This document shows positions 160 through 53,444 of a stretch of 64,000 nucleotides of DNA, in pieces. The DNA comes from Eledone cirrhosa. Its lineage: Eukaryota. The stretch's first letter is position 1. Each line of letters begins with the position of its first letter. The notes below the pieces were generated by a model. It ran no database searches. It was not told the DNA's origin and saw only the letters and a list, made by a program, of their open reading frames with translations. The position numbers and the translations under genes were made by a program. The stretch spans positions 357,368,001 to 357,432,000 of the forward strand of contig OZ024741.1 of NCBI GenBank assembly GCA_964016885.1, in the 5' to 3' direction.

Positions 160-1197
160 AATGAAAAATATAGAAATTGTTGTAGCGAGAAGCTACTCTC
201 TCTCTATATATAGATAGAGGGGGGAGGGGCGAGAGATAGAGGAGGAGGGGACGAGTGAGAGAGCTGGATGAATGAGACGTTATAGTTAAACCAGTAAGAC
301 TATTATTTAACTTATAGTATAGAAAGTAGAGTAAGGATATTATTGTACGGCTTAGCGCTTATACCATTTCGAAAGCAAATAAGAAATTAATCAGTTAATT
401 AATTTATATCTATCTAAATATATGTATAATGAACACCTGCTTGCCTCAAAATATTTTAAAAGGAAACAAGCATTCCCTGTTGTAGCGTATGAGTGTGTAT
501 GTCTTCTCGCGTTTTTTCTCTTCTTTCTCGGTGCTTTTTTTTTTTACTTATTTGTTTCTTTTGGAAATCATAAACATTAATTAATTTGATATATATGTAT
601 ATAATGTGTGTATGATTAATGAAATAAAAATAGAAGTGTTGTCAGGCACGTGAAATATGTCAATACAATAAAAATAGAGCTGTGTTATAATAACCACATA
701 TACAAAGATGGATTAATTGTCAGAAAACTCTTCCTTATTGTTTGGTGAGAGCTGTATCAATGTACATTTCATAATAATAATACTTACCATTTTCCTGTAG
801 GATAGAGCCCTTTTTTACACAGTTGCAACATACCTAGGAGGAATGCATCTTGTTTTTGTGTAAATAAATTATAAAAAAATATTTGAAAAGGTTAAGTGTT
901 TGCAATTTATGGCTATCCAAAGAACCGCCATGCGCCCATTAGGGCGCCACCATAACGTTCTTTGGTATTATTTACAACATTTGAGTTTCGTAAAAAAAAA
1001 TACAATTGGTTTATTCATAGAATTTTCAGTATCACGAAGTAAATGATAGAATTCTTTGGTTAATATATTTATAAATATGTTTAATCTATTTTAAACGATG
1101 TTTATGAAAAATAAATACGTAACGTTCAGCAATTGTTAAAAATTCTGCTCTAAAAGCAAAGACAGCTGAACTGACAATCTAAATGTTTTTTTTCTTT

Positions 1198-1657
1198 ATG
1201 ACTGAAGCAAAGAACGAGCCTGCCTCCCTCACCCGACTGACTTTGTTTCCTTATAACTTTCATAATAATGCATATTTTAAATTAGATTTTGCAGATACAG
1301 TTTCGAAAGTGTAGATTACGAATATGTTGTTGAAATTTAAGTTAATTTTTTTTTTCGCGATTCTTAATTGGCTTTACGTTTCTGTATAAAATCTGATATT
1401 ATCCTGATTGATATTCTTTATTATCAACATGAAATTGGAAGACATGATGAAAAAAATGTCCAAATTTACCTTTATCCACTAAATCGAAAGTATTATGAAC
1501 AAGAATATTTTAAAATTTAAGTTTGTTTAAATATATATATATCATCAACATAATCAACCTTAATCTCTGCAAAATTTGGTTTAAAAAATACAATATCAAG
1601 AAAGTTATGTAGAAACAAAGTGGAGTGAGGGGTGGATAATTGTTCTGCTTCAGATGT
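1198..1657. mobile_element. Old non-autonomous DNA transposon (MITE-like) with long imperfect TIRs
   Basis: actttgtttccttataacttt...attttgcagat (~1240-1296) is the imperfect reverse complement of atctctgcaaaattt...aaagttatgtagaaacaaagt (~1563-1621); the match extends outward to ctgaagca/tgcttcag. Confidence 0.45.
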
Positions 1658-1779
1658 ATTTATTGGCCATCAATTGATATAGTTTATTCTTAATTTTAAT
1701 TGAATATCTATCCTAATAATCTTTTTACAATTAGATTAATAACATTTTTTTATTATCCCCAAAATTATCCTCATTATTT

Positions 1780-2545
1780 TTCTATGAATATGAAAATATA
1801 ATTCTTACAAAATGAAAGTATAAACAAGAATACTTTTTCCAGAATGAAAATATAAATACAATTAATTATTGCTAGGAACCTTACAAATATAATGCACAAA
1901 ACGAGAGACACCCCACCACAAAAAAAAAAAAAAAAAATCAAGAAAATCAATTCATCACTAATTGCGAAAGTCGACCGCACAACCACAAGGATCAACTGAA
2001 ATTGTTGAGGCAAACCAACACGCTCGCAGCATTACCGCGGGTGATGGCGAGGTTAAGGCGCTGAAATAACCAGGCATCACCTCACACCTCGGTAAGGTGA
2101 GCGCTAACAATGGCAACAATTTCGCTGTCAGCGACCCAGCTCCAAACGTCACAGGCTGAGAAAAATAGTTATTTGATAGTATTTTAGGATTTTATTCCGT
2201 TCGACATCGGAAGCAGTGATCCTCACACTTACCACAGAATTCATGATGTGGGAGGGAACAAACAAGTCACTGACTGTGGCGTCCCAAATGAGACATCTGC
2301 CTCACACTCAGGGACAAAGAGTAAGATCATCTGGTTTCTTCCCATCAATTATGGATAATTCAGCCGGCTCCAGAACTGCGGGGATATTTACCCGAGGTAG
2401 TGCCCGCTTGATGATCGGGTTTAGCTCGGTGTAGTGGGCGAAGCGACCAGCATTCACGCAGCAAGACAAGCCATGGAGGCCTGTAGAATCGAGGTACCTA
2501 CCACAACGACATCTCAGACCCCCACAGACATCGACTCCCATTCGG
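1780..2545 (-). mobile_element. CRE-clade non-LTR retrotransposon, 3' fragment (restriction-like endonuclease pseudogene)
   Basis: Translation CRCGRYLDSTGLHGLSC...LNPIIKRAL...IPAVLEPAEL..DGKKPDDLTLCP*..GRCLIWDATVSD followed by WLFQRLNLAITRGNAASVL; CCHC, PD..D and RGNA motifs typical of CRE RLE; stops and frameshifts. Confidence 0.8.
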
Positions 2546-3394
2546 AAACTTCGTTTTTTAGTTACTGTGGGAATTCTTGGGTTGGGGGGTGAATATTACA
2601 CCTATCAAGTTTTGGAGGTAAAATTTTCATTTTCCCTAAGATTTGGGATATGGTTTAAATGAATATGGCCTTCAAAACAATTGGAAATTATTCGTTTGTG
2701 GAATTAACAAATGGGATAGGTACTCTCAGAGTTCTCGGTTTTGGAGGTAAATATTACACTCGTCTCACTTTGGAAGTGAAATTTATGTTTTTCCTATTGT
2801 TCTTTTTGTTCTGCACGAAAATGAGTTGCAAAACCGGGATCAATAAAGGTAAATACAAGTCAATGAGTGGCAGATCAATTTCATAAAAGTAGCACATTTA
2901 AAAAAAGCAGCTGATTATGTTCGAAAGTATCCCAAAACGAAAACTTTGCTACTAAATTAAAACAGCTTAGAGAGTTATGCCCCTTTGTATTCTGTGTTAA
3001 AATGTTATTTTTTAATCAATAATAAAGAAATACACACACATGCATGCATATATAACACAAATATATAAAAGGATATATATATATTTAACGTAGGAATAAA
3101 CGATTGAGATTGATGTGGTTAGTCGATTAGATTGACTCCTGTACTTCAGTGATCGTACACGGCGGTATCTGAACACGAAGTAAAGAACTAAATACTGCAA
3201 TACATTTATCTGATCCTCCAACGAGTTTGCCAATCCGCCGCTCTAATAATCATTTTAAACCTATACATAAGGTCACAAAAGTCAGGATAATAGGTTAGGT
3301 CGAAGGAAAAAAACGCAAAACTGACTTAGATTTTAAGTAAAGGGAAGCTACTTGGTTTAATTTTTCTAAGGGAGATAAATACAGTATTGAAACA

Positions 3395-3495
<101 letters not shown>

Positions 3496-3535
3496 GATAT
3501 TAAATAAATGGAAACTATATTTATAAAACCATATT

Positions 3536-3601
3536 TATTTCATTATATATATTTCAGGGATATCATATTAACAATATGTTATGCCTTCCTCAGACAAAAT
3601 A
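3536..3601 (-). ncRNA. Type I hammerhead ribozyme, intact core (PLE pLTR type)
   Basis: Minus strand reads UAUUUUGU-CUGAGGA-AGGCAUAACAUAUU-GUU-AAUAUGAUAUCCCU-GAAA-UAUAUA-UA^AUGAAAUA: 8-bp stem I, long stem II, palindromic minimal stem III, AUA cleavage triplet. Confidence 0.8.
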
Positions 3602-3942
3602 CAATATAGACAGTTTTATAGATAAATAGATTTGACATACCGTTCAACATCGACTTGTATTTGAAAAAGTTGATTTGGCAGTGAAAAATTGTAAACAGAA
3701 AGAAAGAGAGAAAGAAGGAAAGAAAGAAAGAAAACGTAAATATACTCCAAATACTTGTTGAGTGCTTTTATATCAGTTATAAATATTTACTAGTTGTAAC
3801 CCAACAATTTAAATATAACTTTCCATGTATATATATATATATATATAATGGAAAATATGGTGATAACGGTGTTGATGATAATTATATTTATTGCGGTGGC
3901 GGATATAATATAAGATCAAAAGATGGTTAAAAGAGTTCCAAG

Positions 3943-4013
3943 TATTTTATTATGCGCATTTCAAAAACAAATATCATCATGGAATGATATATGCGTTCTC
4001 ATCAGATAAAATA
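3943..4013 (-). ncRNA. Type I hammerhead ribozyme, intact core (left arm of fold-back)
   Basis: UAUUUUAU-CUGAUGA-GAACGCAUAUAUCAUUCCAUGAUGAUAUUUGUUUUU-GAAA-UGCGCA-UA^AUAAAAUA; perfect 8-bp stem I, palindromic stem III. Confidence 0.82.
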
Positions 4014-4123
4014 GGGAGACATAATATGAAGCTTAAAAAACACTTGTGAATAGTGAAGTTTTAAATCAACATTTAAAACTTCACTATTCACAAATGTTTT
4101 TAAAGCTTCATATCACGTCTCCC

Positions 4124-4194
4124 TATTTTATCTGATGAGAACGCAGATATCATCCCATGATGATATTTGTATTTGAAATGCTCATAATAAAATA
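4124..4194 (+). ncRNA. Type I hammerhead ribozyme (right arm of fold-back)
   Basis: tattttat-CTGATGA-gaacgcagatatcatcccatgatgatatttgtattt-GAAA-tgctca-TA^ataaaata; core intact, stem III loop mutated from tgcgca. Confidence 0.78.
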
Positions 4195-4318
4195 CTTGGA
4201 ACTCTTTTAACCATCTTTTGATCTTATATTATTTATACTCCAGTCCTACAAACTGTAGAGTGCTACTTATCCGATATTTGCATTGCTTTATTGTGCTACA
4301 ATAACACTCACCTCCTAC

Positions 4319-4365
<47 letters not shown>

Positions 4366-4449
4366 TAGGTATTTCTGTAGAAAGGGTAAAGGAAAAAAGT
4401 GGTCTATGTATTATACACCGCTATTTAATTGCATAATACACAACACTAT

Positions 4450-12236: not shown

Positions 12237-12388
12237 GTATGTGTGTGTGTGTGTTAAGTATTTCCATAGAAAGGAAAGAAGAGTGCTCTATTTATTGTAC
12301 AGAGCTATTTAATTACTTAATAAACAACAAATATAATTATTATTCCACAATATAATTATATTGTATTGTTTATTATGTAATATATATA

Positions 12389-12562
12389 GGAAAAAGTTTA
12401 ACCCCGCCGGCAGAGCTCAAGCTGTTTCGACAGCTATTTCTGGACTAATAGAAATAGCCGTCGAAACGGCTTGAGCTCTGCCGTCAGGTTAAACTTTTTC
12501 CTATTACCCACTCTACTACCCTAAGTATTGAGTACTCTGGTTCCTTACCACACCTCCTTCGT
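12389..12562 (+). mobile_element. Fold-back PLE-type pLTR element containing the 3' half of a hammerhead
   Basis: Inverted repeat 12389-12503 centred on ggactaat; right arm GAAA-CGGC-ttgagctct-GCCG-TC^aggttaaac; tail cactct...gagtact...cacctccttcgt then (TA)n. Confidence 0.7.
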
Positions 12563-12581
12563 TATATATATATATATATAT

Positions 12582-12973
12582 CAAGTAAGTATGTTTTGAA
12601 ACAGTCAGCAGGTTTGAAATTAGAAAATAGAATAGCTTTCACCGTATTTTTGACTAAAGGAATTTTAGCCTGATAATGGGGTTTAGAACCCTCAGATAAA
12701 TAGAAAGCTATTCTATTTTCTAATTTCAATCCTGCTCACTGTTTCAAAACATACTTACTTGCCATTTAAAACTCGCTAAGAATGTAGCTTCTAATTTGAA
12801 TGGAAAGAGATGGGTGATGTGTTGGTGTAATGGTAGCACAGTGGTCGCGATAACCAAAGATGTGGGTTCGACTCCCATGTACGTCAATACTCATCTTTTT
12901 CCATTCATATGAGGGTTCTAAACTCCATTATCAGGCTAAAATTCCTTTAGTCAAAAATACGGTGAAAGCTATT
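12582..12973. mobile_element. TA-flanked element: 261-bp monomer (12703-12963) preceded by an inverted copy of its end-to-start junction
   Basis: 12582-12640 = revcomp of 12703-12761; 12631-12694 = revcomp of 12910-12973; terminal direct repeat gaaagctatt. Confidence 0.75.
12816..12886 (+). tRNA. tRNA-like sequence (pseudo-tRNA, identity uncertain; D-arm resembles tRNA-Gln)
   Basis: 71 nt; acceptor gatgtgt/gtacgtc, box A tggtgtaatgg, anticodon arm tggt-cgcgata-acca (no U33), T-arm gtggg-ttcgact-cccat; T5 terminator at 12896-12900. Confidence 0.65.
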
Positions 12974-13222
12974 ATATATATATACATATATAAATAAAAT
13001 CAGAATTTTATTTCTCACCCTAGCATGTGTGCATACTTACATCATCATCATCATCATCATCGTTTAACGTCCATATTTCACGCTAGCATGGGTTAAACGG
13101 TTTTGTTCCATTTGATGCGGGAATGGTTGGGAGACCATGTCTCGCTCTCACGGAAGTGTCTCTGGAAGGTTTTTTTTACAGCTGGACGCCCTTCCTAACA
13201 CCAACCACATTTACAGCGTGGA

Positions 13223-13276
<54 letters not shown>

Positions 13277-13297
13277 CATATATATATATACATATAT

Positions 13298-13531
13298 ATA
13301 ATAGAAAAACATTAGGAAGTTTCATTTACATATAAAAAATATGCACATTTCGCAGAGGATTGGCTCAAGGTAACCCAGAGGAGTTATGGGCCCGACTACA
13401 GTATCGATTTGCTTGTAAATATTCTTTTATATGTAAATGAAACTTCCTTGTTTTTTTTTCTATTATATACACTCTGCCTGTGCATAGAGTGCTTGAATTG
13501 GTATCAACACCAATAATTCACTGTACTACCT

Positions 13532-13535
<4 letters not shown>
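13298..13535 (+). mobile_element. Fold-back PLE-type pLTR element in (TA)n
   Basis: Arms ~13298-13342 / 13419-13468; minus-strand GAAA-TGTGCA-TA hammerhead remnant; tail cactct-gcctgtgcat-agagtgct...cctaca then (TA)n. Confidence 0.62.
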
Positions 13536-24151: not shown

Positions 24152-24518
24152 TCCAGGGAGTGTAACAGGAAGTTACTGTAGGTTCACCCAGGTGGTAAGG
24201 TGTATAGTTAGACAGAGTGTAATATAATACTATAATAATACAAGGAGGATTTGTTAAGCCTTCATTACGTTTATTGATTGGAGACGCGTGCTTCACTATT
24301 GATCAGCTCAAGGTTTGATCTATATCAATCTGGCCCGACTCTAGAATCAAAAGCTCGTCAGACCTCTGCTGTTGTAATGTTGTCAGAGGGCTGATGAGCT
24401 GTTGATTCCAGAGGCAGGCCAGATCGATACAGATCGAACCTTGAGCTGATCAATAGCGGAACGCGCGTCTCCAATCAATAAACGTAATGAAGGCTTAAAT
24501 CGTCCTTGTATTATTATA
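24152..24518 (-). mobile_element. Fold-back PLE-type pLTR element with a hammerhead in each arm
   Basis: Arms 24231-24368 / 24384-24518 with a 15-nt loop; tail 24152-24230 on the minus strand contains tacactctg; (TA)n flanks. Confidence 0.8.
24388..24472 (+). ncRNA. Type I hammerhead ribozyme with long stem II, one core mutation; mirror copy at 24280-24364 on the minus strand
   Basis: ggg-CTGATGA-gctgttgatt...gatcaatagc-GGAA-cgcgcg-TC^tcc; mirror reads CTGACGA...GAAG-cacgcg-TC; the consensus of the two arms restores GAAA. Confidence 0.7.
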
Positions 24519-24519
24519 T

Positions 24520-24556
<37 letters not shown>

Positions 24557-24990: not shown

Positions 24991-25367
24991 ATAAACAAAC
25001 TTTGTTTTTGTTCTTAACATGGTGGATACCTAAGTGTATTCATGAGTGAATAACAATAATATTATAATAATATAATATTATTAATATTCAGTTTGTTTAC
25101 AAGTAAACAGCCTCATAAAACACCACAAACCGAATATTAATAATATTATGATATTATTATAATATGGATTAACAGTATCGGTAGAGGGTCGGATGCCATG
25201 CTTTGCATCAAAGAGTTACGGCCCTTTATGGTCTGAGTTCAAATCCCGTCGAGGTTAACTTTGCCTTTCATCCTTACGGGGCCGATAAAATAAAGTACCA
25301 GTAATGCACTGGGTAATTGCTGGCCTTGTGCCAAAAGTAGAAACAATTATAATATTATTGTTATTCA

Positions 25368-26082
25368 CTGCCAAGGGTGCATGCTGTCATCTCTTCTGTT
25401 CATTATTTACATGAATAGGATTGACATGTGCAGCCGGGTTGGAAGTGGTATCATGACTGGCAGGTGTATAATCAGTTGGCTAGAATTTGCAGAAGATATG
25501 GTGTTACTTAACTCGTCAGAAGGTGATCTCCGATTTGCACTTGATAGGTTTGATGCTGAGTGGTGCATGGCTGGAATGAAAATCAGAACTGCGCAAACTG
25601 AGACACTCATTCTCTCAAAGAACCCTGTACAGTGCACTTTACATGTGAATGGAGTTCCACTGAAGCAGGTAGAGAAGTTCAAGTATATTCAGTTTATGTT
25701 CATGAGTGATGGATGGCAGGAGGCTAAAATAAATGCAAAAATTGCAAGAGCTGATGCAGTAATGCGCCAGTTCCAGCATTCAGTAATCAGAAGAAGGGAG
25801 ATAGGCATAAAAGCCAAACTCGCTTTCTTCAATTCGGTATTCATGCCTACCCTTACCTATGGTTATTAATCTTGGGTAATGACCGAAAGAATACAATTGC
25901 AATACAAGCGGTCGAAATGGGGTACCTCTGAAGGGTCTCTTTTGGAGTAATGTTGCTCGATAGAGTGCATAGCTCAGAAATCAGAGAGTTACTCTAGGTA
26001 GAGGTGCTACTTCTCCAAATTGAGAGATCATAGCTCTGATACTATGGGCATGTGGTTAGAATGTCTCAGGAAAGAACCGCTT
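25368..26082 (+). mobile_element. Degenerate RTE-clade reverse transcriptase fragment
   Basis: QGCMLSSLLFIIYM...FAEDMVLL...LKQVEKFKY...MPTLTYG, then stops; YYGHVVRM near the end. Confidence 0.8.
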
Positions 26083-31162: not shown

Positions 31163-32357
31163 CATCATCATCATCATCACCGTTTTACGTCCGTTCTTCC
31201 ACGCTAGCATGGGTTAGACGGGTTGTCCTTTTGTGGGCAGTGTCTGGTCGGCTGACCATGCCTTGCTCATACAGGAACTGATCTGGCTTGATTTCTACAG
31301 CTGGATGCCCTTCCTAACACCAACCTCATTTACAGTGAGTGCTGGGTGCTTTTTCGTGGCGCCTACACGTCCACTTTACAGTGTGGGCTGGGTGCTTTTT
31401 TGCCGTGGCACCTCCACGACCACCTTGCGGTGGGGGGAGTGGGGGCATATTGTTTATATGCTTCAGCATGTACCCATGGGAGGTCGGGTACCCTGTATTA
31501 CTGCGTGACGCCAGAAGTCACGGTCGTGTGTCATTGTCTTTGAGAGGTGTAGTTGGGTAAGGTCGGCTTTTATCACCTCATCCCAAGTCATCTTGGGTCT
31601 CCCCACTCCGCGGTTTCCATCAACTTCTAGTGCTCTGCACCTTTTTATGCAGCTGTCATCCTTCATACGCATCACATGTCCATACCAGCGTAACCGCCTC
31701 TCCTGCACGCAGCATTTGATTCCTCTTATGCTCAGTCTCTCTCTCAATTCCTTTATGCTTTGTCGTTCACGTATATTACTGTTACACATCCATCGGAGCA
31801 TGCAGGCTTCGTTTCTCTCTAATCTACGTAAGTCTTCCACCTTCAGCGCCCAGGTCTCACTACCATGCAACATCGCTGTTCGGATACACGCATCATACAG
31901 TCTGCCTTTCATTCTGAGGGAGAAGCCTTTTGCAGCTAGCAGTGGTAGTAGTTCCCTAAACTTCTTCCATCCCGTTCTTACCCTAGTTATTGTACTTTCT
32001 GAGCACCCACCTACGTTGCTAATTCGGTCACCTAGGTAGCAGAAGCTGTCTACTGTTTCTACAGGGCCCTCCCAGAGATTGGTGGTACTTGTTTCCTGTG
32101 GCTGTTTGCTTGCTGTTTCAGCACAGCTGCTGCATGTGAATCCTACATTCTTAATTAAGCTTCCTGAGATCCCGCTACATCTCTTGTGTACCCATTGTTT
32201 GCATTTGGGGCAGAGAATGGAGTTCCTACCTACACCTTTCCTACATACTGAGCAAGGCCATTTCCCTGAGGGGATCTGGGTTCTGTTTTCTCGTCTACTT
32301 ACAAGGAACTTAGTCTTTGTCATGTTGACTTTGAGACCCTTTCTCTCTAGTCCCTGC
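31163..32357 (-). mobile_element. 5'-truncated young RTE LINE copy
   Basis: Near-identical to 47473-48671; open frame QGLERKGLKVN...HGSETW...WYGHVMRM; (ATG)n tail; possible TSD cctttt. Confidence 0.92.
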
Positions 32358-33679
32358 CTTTTGTATTCTGAATTTGTCTGTGACATTACTGGTGCCAAGC
32401 TGTATCAACCCTTGGGTGACATAAGTGGCATGAAGAGGGAGACTTGCTTGTATGTCTTGCTGCTAGTCTTCCACAAAAAAAACCTTGCCTAAATATACAC
32501 TTTAGAGAGGAAGTTTCTAAGCGCAGATTCATGGTCTCACAAGACATAAAGCTTCTAAATATTTATAGTCATTGTATCTTTTCTTTTAGATAAGAGTTAC
32601 GACTTAACCCTTTTGACACTAACCCATCTTCTTAAACCTTTGCTACCATGAAGAGAATCAGCAGTACTGTAGTTACCACAATAACTTTACTACTACAACT
32701 GCCCCCACCATCCTTAACACTTCCACTACTAACAACATCACAACCACTCATGCTTCTACACCTCAACATTGTTTATTTCAACCCTTTAGCATTTACATTA
32801 CTCTATATTTACTATTGTATTTTCACAGTAAACACTTTATCTCATATAATATCGAATCTATGATATTTTGATATTATTTATTTTGAGAACAATACCTTAA
32901 CATCAGTATGAGAGGCCAGATATGGCTGGTTTGAACAGAAAGAGGTGAGAGAATTCTGGCTGGATACGGCCGGTTTAAATGCTAAAGGGTTAAAGTGTTT
33001 ATATTTGATTAAAATCCTTCGATCATAATTTTATGTAAGAACCTTTGTTAAGTTATATTTCAAACATCAACTTAATAATGAGAAAGTTAGTTATATTACT
33101 AAATTCCTTGGAATTTTTGATTATTTTCAAAGTTATTTGAAGATCCTCAATTATGTCTTTCATCAGAAATATAGTAATAAAAGGGTTCAAGCATGTTCCA
33201 AATTTAAAGATAGTAAGGAGTTTGAACAGATGAAGCAACTATATAGAGTCTTATTTATTTGCTTTTCATACTTCATTAATTCTTTTATTACCATATGAAT
33301 AACACTTCCCCACTACTTGGTAATGGTGCACCCTCAGATTTAGAAACATTTACAGTGGTATGTTTATTCTAAACCTTGGAATTATTCTGAATTAGAGTTC
33401 CCACCCACAATATTTTAAAGCTCCCATCCCTATCCCATTCCATCCCAAGCACCAAAACCTGGTGATAGACCTTTAATAGCACCAGCCATGAGTGGTAGTA
33501 ATGATAGCAGTGAAGTTGGCTGTGATGTTGTTAGTAGTGGGAGTGTTAAGGATGGTGGGGGCAGGTGTAGTAGTAAAGTTATTGTGGTAACTACAGTACT
33601 GCTGATTCTCTTCATGGTAGCAAAGGAAGTTTGTCTGCTTGATATTTCTTACTATTTTCTAAGATTATTATTATTATTC

Positions 33680-44697: not shown

Positions 44698-45990
44698 CAG
44701 GGTGCGGATGATATTTGTTCGCAAGATTACTATCTAGGAAAAAATAACACAGTAGTTTTATTTTTTAAGATATATTTATCAAACTTGGGTCAGTTTGTCT
44801 TCATGACTTGTTCTTTCGATCTCACTCGATAAACCCGTCATTGGCTTTGATGACGGCCTCAAGGTGGCCTCGGGACCAGCTACAGGCCTTTGTCACTGAC
44901 CCCCGACTTAGGCCCCTAAAGCCACTTATGATCCTGGCCTTCAGATCGTCTTTCGTATTGCAGCTAGATCTGTTGGTGTCTCGTTCCACTGCGCCCCACA
45001 CAAAGAAGTTGAGGGGGTTGAAGTCAGGCGAGCTGGGAGGCCAGATGTCAGGTGAAGTGTGGTCGACGAAGTTCTCTGACAGCCAGGCTTGGGTCTTTCA
45101 GCTGGTATGGCAGGGTGCTGAGTCTTGCTGCCACATGTACGGCCCACCTGCAGCAACCTGGTCGATCCAGGGCTTTACTACCTCACTCAGAACGCGGATG
45201 TAGCCATCGGTGTTCAGCTTGAGGCCCTTAGGGAAGAAGTGAGGTGGCATGACGTCACCTTGACTGCTGACGACACCTAAGACCAATGTTGTCGCTGGAA
45301 ACTTTGTCTGCATGACTCTGGGCACGTCTTTAGATGAGACAGCGAGCCACCTGTTGTTCTGGGAGTTGATCTTTTGGTCTTGGCAGAAGTTTTTCTCATC
45401 GGAGAAAAACCACAGCATGTCTGGTCCCAGTGGGTGTTTCAACTTGTTGATCAGCTTCTTTGCGTGCTTCAGTCGCTTTTCTCGCATCGCCTTTGACAGA
45501 AATTGTCCTTTCCTCATCTTGTATGAAACGTAGTGAATGTCTTCATGTACCACCAGCCTAATGAGCTTTTCATCCACGCCTTTCTCCCTTGCAATGGCAC
45601 GCATCGACTTGCTAGGTTCATTGTTGATGATATCCTGAACTTCAGCGACGAACTCGGGCATTCTGAAGGGGTCAGATCATTGATCCTGTGTTTTGCTCTC
45701 TGATGTTGCTTCATAGTCGAATCCTGAATCTTCCAATTCCTTTCTGACCTTTTCCACCATTCTCCTGCTGACACTGAGATTTCCTTATTTGTCCTCCCGA
45801 TGCGGATTCCAAGAAGAACTCCGTGTCTCTTCCACAAATTTGGATGTTCAAAATTATTCCTAATCAATTATTCTGATAATAAATAATGGAAATATAGTCA
45901 CTGTTTTTATGAAGACAAGAGTGACAACGGAAGTAAAAAAATGTGCATAAAATTAGCAGTTGAAAATTGCGAACAAACATCGTCCACACC

Positions 45991-47473: not shown

Positions 47474-50400
47474 CATCATCATCATCATCACCGCTTTACG
47501 TCCGTTCTTCCATGCTAGCATGGGTTAGACGGGTTGTCCTGTTGTGGGCAGTGTCTGGTCGGCTGACCATGCCTTGCTCATACAGGAACTGATCTGGCTT
47601 GATTTCTACAGCTGGATGCCCTTCCTAACACCAACCTCATTTACAGTGAGTGCTGAGTGCTTTTTCGTGGCGCCTACACGTCCACTTTACAGTGTGGGCT
47701 GGGTGCTTTTTTGCCATGGCACCTCCACGACCACCTTGCGGTGGGGGGAGTAGGGGCATATTGTTTATATGCTTCAGCATGTACCCATGGGAGGTCGGGT
47801 ACCCTGTATTACTGCGTGACGCCAGAAGTCACGGTCGTGTGTCATTGACTTTGAGAGGTGTAGTTGGGTAAGGTCGGCTTTTATCACCTCATCCCAAGTC
47901 ATCTTGGGTCTTCCCACTCCACGGTTTCCATCAACTTCTAGTGCTCTGCACCTTTTTATGCAGCTGTCATCCTTCATACGCATCACATGTCCATACCAGC
48001 ACAACCGCCTCTCCTGCACACAGCATTTGATTCCTCTTATGCTCAGTCTCTCTCTCAATTCATTTATGCTTTGTCGTTCACGTATATTACTGTTACACAT
48101 CCATCGGAGCATGCAGGCTTCGTTTCTCTCTAATCTACGTAAGTCTTCCACCTTCAGCGCCTAGGTCTCACTACCATGCAACATCGCTGTTCGGATACAC
48201 GCATCATACGGTCTGCCTTTCATTCTGAGGGAGAAGCCTTTTGCAGCTAGCAGTGGTAGTAGTTCCCTAAACTTCTTCCATCCCGTTCTTACCCTAGTTA
48301 TTGTACTTTCTGAACACCCACCTCCGTTGCTAATTCGGTCACCTAGGTAGCAGAAGCTGTCTACTGTTTCTACAGGGCCCTCCCAGAGATTGGTGGTACT
48401 TGTTTCCTGTGGCTGTTTGCTGCTTGCTGTCCCAGTACAGCTGCTGCATGTGAATCCTACATTCTTAATTAAGCTTCCTGAGATCCCGCTACATCTCTTG
48501 TGTACCCATTGTTTGCATTTGGGGCAGAGAATGGAGTTCCTACCTACACCTTTCCTACATACTGAGCAAGGCCATTTCCCTGAGGGGATCTGGGTTCTGT
48601 TTTCTCGTCTACTTACAAGGACCTTAGTCTTTGTCATGTTGACTTTGAGACCCTTTCTTTCTAGTCCCTGCTTCCAAGTTTGGAATTTATTCTCTAGTTC
48701 TACCATAGATTCAGCTATGAGTGCGAGGTCATCAGCATACAGGAGTTCCCATGGGCATCCGGTCTTAAACTCCTCCGTTATTGCCTGCAGGACTATGATG
48801 AACAGGAGAGGGCTAAGAACAGAGCCCTGGTGAACCCCAACCTGTACATTAAATTCCTCGCTATACTCATTGCTAATCCTAACTTTGCTGACTGCTCCCC
48901 TGTACATGGCTTGTACCGCTTTCACAAGCCATTCATCTACTCCTAGTTTTCTAAGAGCCCACCAGATTACAGCACGTGGAACTCTGTCAAAGGCTTTCTC
49001 AAGGTCGACAAATGCCAAGTAGAGTGGCTTACTTTTAGCTAGGTACTTTTCCTGTAATTGCTTCACAAGGAAGAGGGCATCAGTGGTGCCTCTTCCTGGT
49101 ACAAACCCAAATTGCATCTCGTCTATTTTCACCCGGTCCCTAATCAGCTGTGCTATAACTCTTTCTGTTACTTTCATGACCTGGTCCATCAACTTTATAC
49201 CTCTATAGTTTCCTCTATCTAGTGCATCGCCTTTACCTTTGTAGCAGTTGACAATGATGCTACTGCACCAATCTTTTGGTATGGCACCTTCTAGTATTAC
49301 CTGGTTAACGATACGTGTGGTTATAGTGTGACCTACAGACCCAGATGCCTTCAGCATCTCGGCAGCTATACCCGATGGACCGGTTGCCTTCCCCATCTTC
49401 ATATCTTTGATTGCCTTACTTACTACGCTGCTGCTGACTTGTACTGCTGGTCCCTCTATAGGGTCTACTTGGGGTAGGGTCTCTTCTTCCCATGCATTCT
49501 CCTCATTTAGTAATCTATCATAATGACTCTTCCATGCATCTTTCTTCTCAGCACTTGTGAGGGCAAGCTCACCTTTATCATTCCGGATACACTTCTCTCC
49601 AATGACATCACAACTATCTCTGACACACTGCCTTGCAATCTTGAATACCTCCTGTTTCTGGTCCTCATGTTGTAAAACCTGCTTGAATTTTCTATCCTCT
49701 GCTTCCCTCCTAGCTAAGTATACTTGTCGCCTAGCTTCCCTCTTGGTCTCTATGTAATGTACCCTGCTCTCCCCGTTCTTCCATTCTTTCCATGCCTGTC
49801 TCTTGGCCTTAACTGCTTCATCTACCTTATTGTTCCACCACCAAGTCACTCTCCTCCTGCTTGAGGTCTTACTCCAGCCACAGACCTCATCCGTCGCCTC
49901 TAGTAAATTATTTTTTAGGAACTCCCAGTTCTCTTCTACATTAAATGTCTCTATCTGTTCTTCTTTACTGTCGTAGGCGTTGAGTAAAATATCTTTAAAT
50001 CTGTTACTGGTTGAGGGGACTTTCAGCTTCCAGATCTTTCTTCTCCAGGTTGGCCTCTGTTTCCGGGTTCGTCTAGTTCTGACCGTGAGGTCGCTGACAA
50101 CTAAGCTATGTTGGGATGTACATTCCTCACTAGGGAAGGCTTTTGTGTTTACGACTGTCCATCTGTCACGTCCTCTGATGAGGATAAAATCTAACTGACT
50201 AGAGTGCTCCCCTGATCTATAGGTGATCAGGTGGTTGTCGGGTTTTTTAAAGTTTGTGTTACATATCGACATGTCATTGGCGTCGCAGAATTCTAGAAGT
50301 CTGAATCCTTCCTCATTCCTTGTGCCAACCCCATGGCCTCCATGTACTCTATTGAAGCCGTCGCAGTGTTTACCTACGTGTCCGTTAAAATCTCCTGCGA

Positions 50401-50648
50401 TGATTAGGAAGTCCTTGTCGTCTGTTAGAGCAGTAGTGTGCATTAGGGACTCGTAAAACCTATCCTTAAGTTCGTCTGGCAGCCCCGATTGGGGTGCGTA
50501 AGCTGATATTATTGTGGTAATTGTTTTATTCAGGACTAGTCTGAGTTTAATGATTCTTGCATTTACCCTGTACACTGAGATTACTTTATCTACCCACTTG
50601 TCAGCTAGTAGTATACCTACACCACCCATCCCATCGTCATTTCCCACT
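47473..50648 (-). mobile_element. Young RTE-clade LINE, 5'-truncated within the AP endonuclease
   Basis: GVGILL, SAYAPQ, GDFNGH, LDFIL and SQHSLV (APE) motifs; NYRGIKL, QFGF, FVDLEKAFDRV, HQGSVLSP and LYADD (RT) motifs; (ATG)n tail. Confidence 0.95.
47774..50645 (-). pseudogene. RTE APE-RT polyprotein with a PHD-like finger; single in-frame TAG at 48161-48163
   Basis: ORFs 48161-50704 and 47774-48151 are the same frame; the sister copy has TGG at 31850-31852. Confidence 0.9.
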
Positions 50649-50667
50649 ATATATATATATTTCCCAT

Positions 50668-50699
<32 letters not shown>

Positions 50700-50707
50700 C
50701 ACACACA

Positions 50708-53444
50708 TGCTATATCTATCTCTACCTATGCTCCCCAAGCGGGCCTAGGTAAAGAAGAGAAGGACTGCTTTTATGAGCAACTTCTAGAGACAACCACAAT
50801 GACAGAGGACAGAGACCTAGTTATACTAGCAGGTGACTTCAATGGTCATACTGGAGAGCTCCAGGATTGATACACTGTGGTACATGGTGGTCATGGTTAT
50901 GACTCAAGAAACGAAGAAGGAGTGAGGCTTCTTGAATTTTGTGATGCAAGTGAACTAACCATTTGTAACACTAACTTCAAGAGACTACCAACCACCAATA
51001 ACCTACCAATCAGGCGAGCACTTAAGCCAGATTGACTTCTTGCTAGTTAGGCAATGAGACAGACAGATGGTCTCAAATACTAAGGCATACCCTGGGGAAG
51101 AATGTACCCCCCAAACAGAGGTTAGTCATTAGTGACACCTCAATAAGCAAGAGACAAAATGAGACACACAGGAAGGTGTAAAAAAGGAAGGTCTGGAAGC
51201 TAAAAGACCTTTCACTAAAATATAAATTTAGGAAAGCCCTCCAAGATGTGTATGATGAAAAAGAAGACGAGTTAGAATCATATGACATAGATGCTAACTG
51301 GAATTTCTTCCACGATACGGAAGAAGGGTGACCTGGTGGTGGAACAGCATGGTAGATAGAGCCATTAAAGACAAAAGACTAGCATCGAAGGCTTGAAAAA
51401 ATAGTGGGAGTAGAGACCGATACTCAGCTGCTAAAAGAGAGGTTAGATGTCAAGTGTACTTAGCATGCAGGGAAGCTGAGAGTAGGAGGTTTGCCAATGT
51501 TCTGCGACGAGAAGATCAAACATATGTGATGTTCCACATTGCAAGGCAGTATGTCAGTGTAAATCAGGATGTTGTTGGAGATAAGTGTGTCTGAAATAAT
51601 GCTGGTGCACTTAGTGTCACTGATGCTCAGAAAACAGAGGCCTGGAAATGTCATTATGAGAGACTGATGAATGTTGAGAATGAGAGGGAGAGAGAGAAAC
51701 TATCTCTAGTAGACCCAGCAGAGGGACCAGCTATTGATATTGATGACTATATGGTCAAAGAGGCAATTAAGGAAATGAAGAATGGTAAGGTTGCTGGACC
51801 ATCAGGAATAATTGCTGAGATGCTGAAGGCATCAGGAGAAGTAGAAACTAAACTGGTTGCACGCATCATCAATCAAGCTATATATGGCGGAGTCATACCC
51901 AAAGACTGGTGCAGCAGTAGTCTTATAAATTGTTACAAAGGTAAAGTGAATGCTCTGGAAAGGAGCAATTATAGGGGCATAAAACTGATGGATCAGGTTA
52001 TGAAAGTGTCAGAAAGAATACTAGTGCAACTAATTAGAGAAATGATCAATTTAGATGAGATGCAGTTTGGTTTTGTGCCTGGAAAAAGTACAATAGATGC
52101 CCTCTTCTTAGTGAGACAACTACAAGAGAGGTTCTTCGAAAAGAATAAGCCACTATACTTAGCCTTTGTTGACCTAGAGAAGGCCTTCGATAGAGTACTC
52201 CGATCTGTTATCTGGTGGTCCCTAAGGAAACTAGGTGTAGAGGAATGGCTTGTGAAGACAGTGCAAACTATGTACAGAGGTGCTGTCAGTAAAGAGAGAG
52301 TAGGAATGGAGTGAGGAATGGAGTGAGGAATTCCAGATACAAGTAGGAGTACATCAGGGTTCGGTCCTCAGCCCACTCTTGTTCATTATAGTTCTCCAAG
52401 GCATAAGAGAGGAGTTTAAGACTGGCTGCCCATGGGAACTTCTCTATGCTGACGATCTGGTACTTATAGCAGAATCAGTAGAGGAGCTAGAGAATAAATT
52501 CTGGCTATGGAAACAGCAGTTGGAATCAAGAGGACTGAGAGTGAACCTAGCTAAGACAAAAATGTTGATGAGTAGAAAAGAGGACAAAACTCTGATTCTG
52601 TCAGGGAGATGGCCATGTTCGATATGTAGAAAAGGAGTTGGCATAAATTCTATAGAATGTACACAATGTAGATCTAGGGTACACAAGAGATGTAGTGGGA
52701 TAGTAGACAAACTAACAGGCAGGGAAAACTACATATGCAGTAGATGTTCAGGGAAATTTGACAGTAGAAGTCGCAGTGATAGACACATTTTTCAAATGCA
52801 GGTAGGATCTATAGAGGTGGTTGATAGCTTCCGATACCTAGGTGATCAGATTAACAATGGAGGAGGGTGTTCCAAGACCATAGTATCTAGAATAAGGATG
52901 GGTTGGAAGAAGATTAGGGAGCTGCTTCCTCTGCTGACAAAGGAGGGTTTCTCCCTATGAACGAAAGCCAGTTATATGATGCCTGTGTGAGATGCGCGAT
53001 GCTGCATGGTAGTGAGACATGGGCAGCAACTGCGGAGGATATGCGATGGCTGGAGAGAAATGAAGCAAGCATGCTCTGATGGATGTGCAATGTCAATGTG
53101 CATGAACGACCAAGCATAGATGAGTTGAGAGAGAAACTGTGTTTGAGAGGGATAGAATGTAGTGTGCGAGAGAGGAGACTGAGTTGGTATGGGCATGTGA
53201 TGCACATGGAGAATGACTGCTGGGTAAAGAAGTGCCAAGAAATCCAGTGGAAGGAAGACGCAGTAGAGGAAGACCACGAAAATCATGGGCGGAGGTGGTG
53301 AGAGCAGACCTCAGATTGCTGAAACTCACCAAGGAGATGATAAAGGACCGCAATGAATGGACAGATGCTGTGCTGAATAGGATCCGTCCCACTCTTGCGA
53401 GCAGGGAAAAGCAGACATAAAATGATGATATGATGATGATGATG

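Follow-up and report, generated by a model that had tools for sequence, protein, structure and literature searches.

The 392-base insertion at positions 12582–12973 of the window, the whole 64,000-nt stretch of Eledone cirrhosa DNA analysed here, is one copy of an abundant non-coding repeat. Its parts and the tracts that flank it are listed below on the coordinates of the window.

12563–12581, no strand: left (TA)n target tract, seen in the sequence; no target-site duplication is resolvable
12582–12706, − strand: inverted 5′-truncated arm, with 119 of 125 nt matching the joined unit; it holds the family 3′ end (a one-sided tail of ~50 nt, 12582–12631), segment Y and the trailer up to the T-run
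12703–12706, no strand: 4-nt GAAA microhomology at the inversion point, seen in the sequence
12703–12761, + strand: segment X, the 3′-terminal part of the upstream partial unit and a pseudo-LTR-like remnant that includes the tail
12762–12796, + strand: segment Z, the least-covered part of the unit; the X-to-Z head-to-tail join lies at 12761/12762
12797–12815, + strand: left arm of the 19-bp enclosing stem, purine-rich
12816–12886, + strand: tRNA-like cloverleaf with box A (12823–12833) and box B (12865–12875); its anticodon loop is non-canonical and variable
12889–12907, + strand: right arm of the enclosing stem, with a T5 run at 12896–12900; many fold-backs of the family fall in the zone 12876–12905
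12908–12973, + strand: segment Y, with two small hairpins and the second GAAAGCTATT at its end, which carries no tail
12974–12992, no strand: right (TA)n-type target tract, seen in the sequence

The 10-nt direct repeat GAAAGCTATT at 12703 and 12964 has a spacing of 261 and bounds a 261-nt unit (12703–12963), as the original prediction had it. The forward copy is 1.04 units long and ends without a tail; a tail of about 50 nt is found at the left end only. The upstream segment had been described as inverted, reading across the end-to-start join of the unit and ending at 12694. The first part of this description stands: between 12582 and 12694 the arm has three mismatches in 113 nt to the circularly joined unit, and its alignment score is highest with the joined unit (220), compared with 132 for the linear copy and no more than 27 for 300 shuffles. 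Its end, however, is at 12706. The seeming 8-nt spacer belongs to the inverted arm because two of the three extra mismatches in it carry the majority letter of the family. In full, the arm is 125 nt long with six mismatches to the joined unit, and its overlap with the forward copy consists of four letters, GAAA. The 64-kb window holds no second copy of the unit.

Other copies come from public sequencing runs, seven of which, from four coded organisms and three studies, are listed as containing part of the stretch. Copies were aligned onto 12510–13035 at a likeness of 80% from four of ten listed runs (X1, X4, X7 and X8, counted to four studies), leaving out X6 (share 0.09), X5, X2, X3, X9 and X10. 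Within this range the alignment skips 12510–12596 and 12968–13035, so that it covers the interior of the insertion rather than its flanks, empty sites or how often the end without a tail occurs; the individual pieces, joints and variant rows cited here are among the 24 (of 4934), 15 (of 89) and 40 (of 137), respectively, that were listed. The unit matches 3969 contigs in run X1 of organism A (possibly the window's own source), 2953 of 12,467,656 reads in the RAD run X8 of the same organism, 700 more diverged contigs in run X7 of organism D and seven contigs, at depth 3–10, in run X4 of organism B. The repeat unit is an abundant interspersed family, and the share of RAD reads gives an order-of-magnitude copy number of ~900–4400, with genome sizes assumed and a biased library. 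A single-copy sequence produced by local rearrangement is refuted by these matches. These counts, together with (AT)n at the family terminus, bear out the proposal of a multi-copy mobile element that targets TA. Exact motif scans of viral, metagenome and prokaryote genome contigs gave no match, as expected for an animal repeat. The low count in organism B could reflect low copy number, contamination or transfer. At 12815–12821 the variant type of organism B (X4) makes up a quarter to two fifths of the RAD reads of organism A.

At 12906 and 12909 the letters of the forward copy perfect the outer end of the enclosing stem, yet they account for ~0.2% of X1 depth. The inverted arm has the majority letters at the matching positions; two templates, or local repair guided by the left arm, could explain this.

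The family terminus recurs at 12761–12765 and is followed by (AT)n: this is seen in 16 contigs of X1, in one of X4 and also at the left end of the insertion described here. The unit does not naturally begin at position 12703: the usual 3′ end of the family is at ~12761, 59 nt further on. In X4 record 10, 12876–12963 reads straight into 12703–12761 and then into (AT)n, so that what had been taken for an end-to-start junction is a normal stretch from the interior of the family sequence. The head-to-tail template that this junction was held to indicate nevertheless agrees with joins seen in other copies. X4 record 9 (276 nt) carries Y, X, 76 unaligned nt, Z and the tRNA, all in one sense, and the X-to-Z join is crossed by three of the eight listed X1 pieces (records 1–3) and by one of the eight listed X7 pieces (record 15). 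Two complete units in tandem occur in none of the 24 listed pieces (of 4934). In X1, X7 and X8, strand-change joints connect 12692–12693 to 12903–12905, such that the tRNA continues into the predicted junction. Among the joints listed from these three runs, fold-backs and changes of strand fall at variable points between 12876 and 12905; X4 (organism B) contains a perfect palindrome at 12876.

The depth of coverage is strongly one-sided. Folded X1 depth along the unit runs from 13.8k at the start of Z (13,778) through 38k, 126k and 279k to 407k in the trailer (406,916), and then 315k in Y and 224k in X, where summed contig depth does not equal copy number and the low cover of Z may partly reflect divergence. 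X7 changes in the same direction, from 378 at the start of Z to 8132 in Y. Since X1 coverage drops ~30-fold 5′-ward from the trailer through the tRNA to Z, most copies lose their 5′ side within the tRNA and its stem. Read ends in X8 pile up at 12618, 12664, 12722, 12793 and 12943, but these positions coincide with AATT sites and were rejected as ends of the element or of an RNA. They are read as restriction cuts, and AATT cuts shape the coverage of X8 as a whole.

These boundaries bear on two explanations in which the ends of the insertion are terminal repeats. In the first, the insertion is a miniature inverted-repeat element (MITE) that has captured a tRNA and has Y as its terminal inverted repeats; a Tc1/mariner transposase would have put it into TA, and local template switching would have added X. 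The insertion does contain an 80-nt inverted repeat that is 94% complementary, it is flanked by TA, and the window has an ORF at 45098–45676 that we take to be a mariner-like transposase fragment. However, the recurring terminus of the family is the end of X and not of Y, Y continues into X in other copies and organisms, and coverage is one-sided. The inner boundaries vary among copies, so this explanation is largely refuted and we regard it as very improbable.

In the second, the insertion is a non-autonomous tyrosine-recombinase element of the DIRS type, or an LTR-type element such as a TRIM with a small-RNA promoter (Helenus, Cassandra). The available parts of the respective sources describe DIRS elements as having inverted repeats plus a region that is the complement of their joined ends (PMC8969392), and Helenus and Cassandra as having small-RNA sequences inside them (PMC10886601). 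Such elements insert whole, whereas most copies here are truncated at variable points; the segment that spans the junction is external here rather than internal; and in place of a 5-bp target duplication and two full LTRs just a 10-nt direct repeat is seen. An origin of this kind is highly improbable.

The center of the unit is a tRNA-like module. The original prediction of a cloverleaf with box A, box B and a T5 run, enclosed by a stem of ~18 bp, holds in all its parts. Segment 12816–12886 matches Rfam RF00005 with 41.2 bits against a gathering score of 29, the sole Rfam match at gathering threshold in the window, and ARAGORN places a tRNA at 12815–12887, which it calls tRNA-Ser(CGA). By pairing count the enclosing stem (12797–12815 with 12889–12907) has 19 bp, 17 of them Watson–Crick and two G–U. 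Folding gives a z of −4.85, and none of 200 shuffles folds as well. A bulge of 3 nt is found on the 3′ side of the tRNA only, while the base before the tRNA (position −1) is paired in the 19-bp helix.

The cloverleaf that ARAGORN calls tRNA-Ser(CGA) is not a decoding tRNA because it has G33, T37, a variable loop of 4 nt, which is short for a Ser call, and a G–A mismatch in the anticodon stem. Nor does it qualify as a functional tRNA gene: the anticodon letters also vary among copies, and the letters of the window at 12847 and 12848 are not those of 80% and 96% of X1 depth, respectively. The unit has intact boxes A and B, which form a candidate promoter, as judged by sequence. Among the listed variants, 13 fall at paired positions, where eight keep the pairing and five break a pair when taken singly; those listed in the stem core (12806, 12807 and 12808) all retain pairing on the + strand. 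In this thin sample the pattern is consistent with selection acting on shape and promoter boxes and not on decoding.

With its two boxes the unit could be an ordinary tRNA-derived SINE with a (TA)n tail, moved by a LINE, in which the inverted arm arose by twin priming or by a later local rearrangement. The 5′-ward loss of coverage would also fit copying of the LINE type, and RTE-like LINE fragments and SINE-like repeats occur throughout the window, which is also rich in microsatellites. However, the tRNA is internal, as had been noted from the sequence: upstream of it come ~54 nt that are conserved in the family and connect head-to-tail with the 3′ end, and the tRNA is not where copies begin, as it would be in a standard SINE. 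Twin priming of one linear RNA inverts its 5′ part without duplicating the 3′ end, whereas both outer ends here are of the 3′ type and differ by the tail. The fold-backs recur in organisms A, B and D, and the T5 run directly after the tRNA places a Pol III terminator before the 3′ end. Compared with a SINE2, the unit has the internal boxes, but its tRNA is not at the 5′ end and its body is not free of a terminator. With these differences, a SINE is an improbable description of the family.

The original prediction found no intact hammerhead core, and the joined unit indeed gave no match on either strand in a relaxed scan, nor an Rfam ribozyme match, in this copy and the listed variants. The motif GAAAGCTA at the junction, which had been thought suggestive, does not hold up, as neither a core nor a stem I goes with it. 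One near-core heptamer occurs, but the remainder of the fold is missing. A core-like heptamer on the inverted arm was discarded as well, as it needs a letter at 12606 that is absent from 99.9% of X1 depth. Close to the locus, Rfam also gives miRNA-like matches, which do not reach their gathering scores and are due to the palindromes.

The arrangement of the locus as a whole follows a known pattern, the one that Penelope-like elements (PLEs) show. According to the available part of one account, PLE insertions are 5′-truncated partial tandems, often with an adjacent inverted 5′-truncated copy. They carry a tail of 30–40 bp at one end and are biased to microsatellites, which are (TA)n in the case of Naiads; Naiads have no canonical hammerheads, and non-autonomous derivatives make head-to-tail insertions (PMC8557442). 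As described in accessible sections of another, inverted PLE junctions bear palindromes and pLTR sequences alone are mobilised in trans (PMC3846280). Every described feature of a PLE insertion is present here, namely an inverted 5′-truncated arm, a partial tandem (X before Z), a one-ended tail, a fixed 3′ end, variable 5′ truncation and a (TA)n target, and the locus is therefore read as one PLE-driven insertion.

Thus, the insertion is quite probably a non-autonomous, retrozyme-like PLE passenger with an internal tRNA module; the reverse transcriptase and GIY-YIG endonuclease that copied it were likely supplied in trans by a PLE. It resembles the endonuclease-bearing PLEs and derivatives such as MRC1, as far as these are covered by the available parts of PMC8557442 and PMC3846280, in its 5′ truncation, partial tandem and inverted 5′-truncated arm, and likewise in the one-sided tail, the (TA)n target without a resolvable duplication and the palindromes at inverted junctions. 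Unlike them, the unit has no ORF or hammerhead and contains a stem-enclosed tRNA. Its tail of ~50 nt exceeds the published 30–40 nt, and the extensions of neighboring elements (see below) are longer still. An autonomous PLE that shares the 3′ end was not found in the window, and a scan of the window for GIY-YIG-like motifs was negative. Fragments of reverse-transcriptase ORFs are located at 48161–50725, 31463–32404, 51595–52960 and 25294–25869; these presumably resemble RTE LINEs. Four of five short motifs of the family are absent from the available supplement of Craig et al. (PMC8557442), where the fifth occurs in an unrelated context.

In the sequence of events that we infer, for the enzyme, the priming and the stalling alike, an RNA in the tRNA sense would be made from a partial-tandem source copy. 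The PLE enzyme would nick (TA)n and prime on the 3′ end of the RNA, and reverse transcription would usually stall within the tRNA and its enclosing stem. The inverted arm would then be produced by a fold-back or a switch of template, here by way of GAAA, with the arm beginning at the family 3′ end and stopping in the right arm of the stem; the forward copy would follow, and the second end would be resolved without a tail.

The role of the tRNA is the least certain part of the PLE reading. The tRNA may well be an internal Pol III promoter whose transcript continues past T5 through what remains of its own unit and on into the following one, with the stem shielding the tRNA ends from RNases P and Z, although we stop short of calling this probable. 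Read-through is required because T5, directly behind the tRNA, should end Pol III transcription before Y and X; it would resemble the tandem repeats of schistosomes or Cassandra, in which transcription runs onward from the promoter of one unit (PMC6765202; PMC10886601). It is possible, if doubtful, that the tRNA is passive captured cargo, and unlikely that it is a signal for processing or circularisation. Of the two functions originally suggested, a Pol III promoter is more likely to be what the tRNA supplies than processing sites, even though the T5 run is a problem for a promoter. RNase P prefers substrates in which position −1 is part of a bulge, and extensive pairing of leader and trailer inhibits it, as described in the part of PMC9705548 that was available. 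Processing by RNases P and Z is somewhat disfavoured here because the base before the tRNA is locked in the 19-bp helix, and for the same reason the stem may protect the RNA from cutting.

A variant of the PLE reading, with its probability counted inside that of the latter, is a circular RNA like those of retrozymes, with the tRNA in the place of the hammerhead: host tRNA-processing enzymes would cut multimers down to unit length, the unit would circularise and a PLE reverse transcriptase would copy it by rolling circle. The forward copy of 1.04 units and the crossing of both joins in other copies speak for such a circle. Animal retrozymes of 170–400 nt form circles and are proposed users of PLEs, according to the accessible text of PMC7229834. 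The unit also folds better as a circle on the + strand (z −2.8) than on the − strand (z −0.5), but this signal comes mostly from one stem. The pairing of position −1 and the bulge on the 3′ side only run against the preference of RNase P, as the available portion of PMC9705548 presents it. Cleavage at both ends of the tRNA would strip it from the template, yet the tRNA is copied, and partial tandems account for the joins without a circle. Since the whole arrangement is a known pattern of PLE insertion, a circle is possible and not required; we consider it rather unlikely.

Among known systems, the unit works like an animal non-LTR retrozyme but does not carry the hammerhead by which these are defined; it does not conform to a standard SINE, MITE or TRIM either. 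The likeness to retrozymes, as seen in the available parts of PMC7229834 and bioRxiv 10.64898/2026.07.22.740005, includes a non-coding unit of 170–400 nt, head-to-tail joins and a probable dependence on PLEs. The difference is that a type-I hammerhead, which defines them, was not found here and that circular RNA has been shown for retrozymes whereas the present unit is known from DNA. Retrozymes are described as promoter-free in the section of PMC7761336 that was available, and the word tRNA has no occurrence in the main text of bioRxiv 10.64898/2026.07.22.740005. The SINE-like hammerhead repeats of schistosomes, on the accessible account of PMC6765202, also have a tandem unit and a Pol III promoter, by which an upstream unit transcribes the next. 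Theirs is an active hammerhead, whereas none was found in the unit here, whose full cloverleaf sits in a long stem and has T5 after it. The TRIMs Cassandra, Helenus and Ajax, as presented in the available text of PMC10886601, are non-autonomous retroelements with an internal Pol III module derived from a small RNA (a candidate module in the case of the present unit), and Cassandra transcribes from one module to the next. They have two LTRs, a primer-binding site and short target duplications, in contrast to the truncation, inversion and tails of the PLE type seen here.

The literature searched, which included few subscription journals and neither Repbase nor Dfam, where the family may bear another label, describes no tRNA-bearing, ribozyme-free PLE passenger. 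It is a speculative and unlikely proposition that the family belongs to a class, as yet undescribed, of PLE parasites without a ribozyme, which would correspond to SINEs on the side of PLEs and have originated in several animal lineages. Its tRNA module would do the job of the hammerhead, launching and defining a unit-length, possibly circular RNA through the host tRNA machinery. PLE transposition is yet to be reconstituted and the cis requirements of the PLE enzyme are open; an in vitro PLE system is called the next task in the available text of PMC8557442. If a 261-nt unit shows the full PLE insertion pattern with neither ORF nor hammerhead, it would serve as a minimal natural substrate and would also show that passengers with tRNA promoters extend beyond those of LINEs (SINEs) and LTR elements (Helenus, Cassandra). 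Such families inflate counts of tRNA genes, and automatic annotation likely labels them as SINE, MITE or unknown repeat.

The neighborhood of the insertion contains several palindromes flanked by TA. A strict type-I hammerhead scan of the window gives three sites (3593 −, 4005 − and 4132 +) compared to none in each of 30 shuffles; the Rfam search gave none of the three. All four neighboring TA-flanked palindromes that were examined have a one-sided extension of 58–88 nt up to (TA)n, a layout they have in common with the insertion and its 50-nt extension. The tail of the insertion has no significant similarity to the tails of these four neighbors. The palindrome at 3905–4232 (328 nt) has a type-I hammerhead in each arm (4005 − and 4132 +) and an 88-nt one-sided extension to (TA)n; it is a PLE-type stump. 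Between two TA tracts lies a further type-I hammerhead, at ~3550–3610 on the − strand; its core is at 3593, its stem I has 8 bp and its stem III is palindromic. At 24153–24527, a 306-nt palindrome (24222–24527) with a hammerhead-like core and a long stem II is extended on one side by 69 nt to (TA)n. The element at 13295–13534 comprises a palindrome (13295–13469) with inverted ends of 51 nt and a one-sided extension of 65 nt, again between TA tracts. The immediate neighbor at 12386–12562 consists of a 119-nt hairpin (12386–12504) and an extension of 58 nt on one side. Of a hammerhead-like motif, the hairpin carries the 3′ half. This neighbor shares the (TA)n tract into which the element at 12582–12973 inserted.
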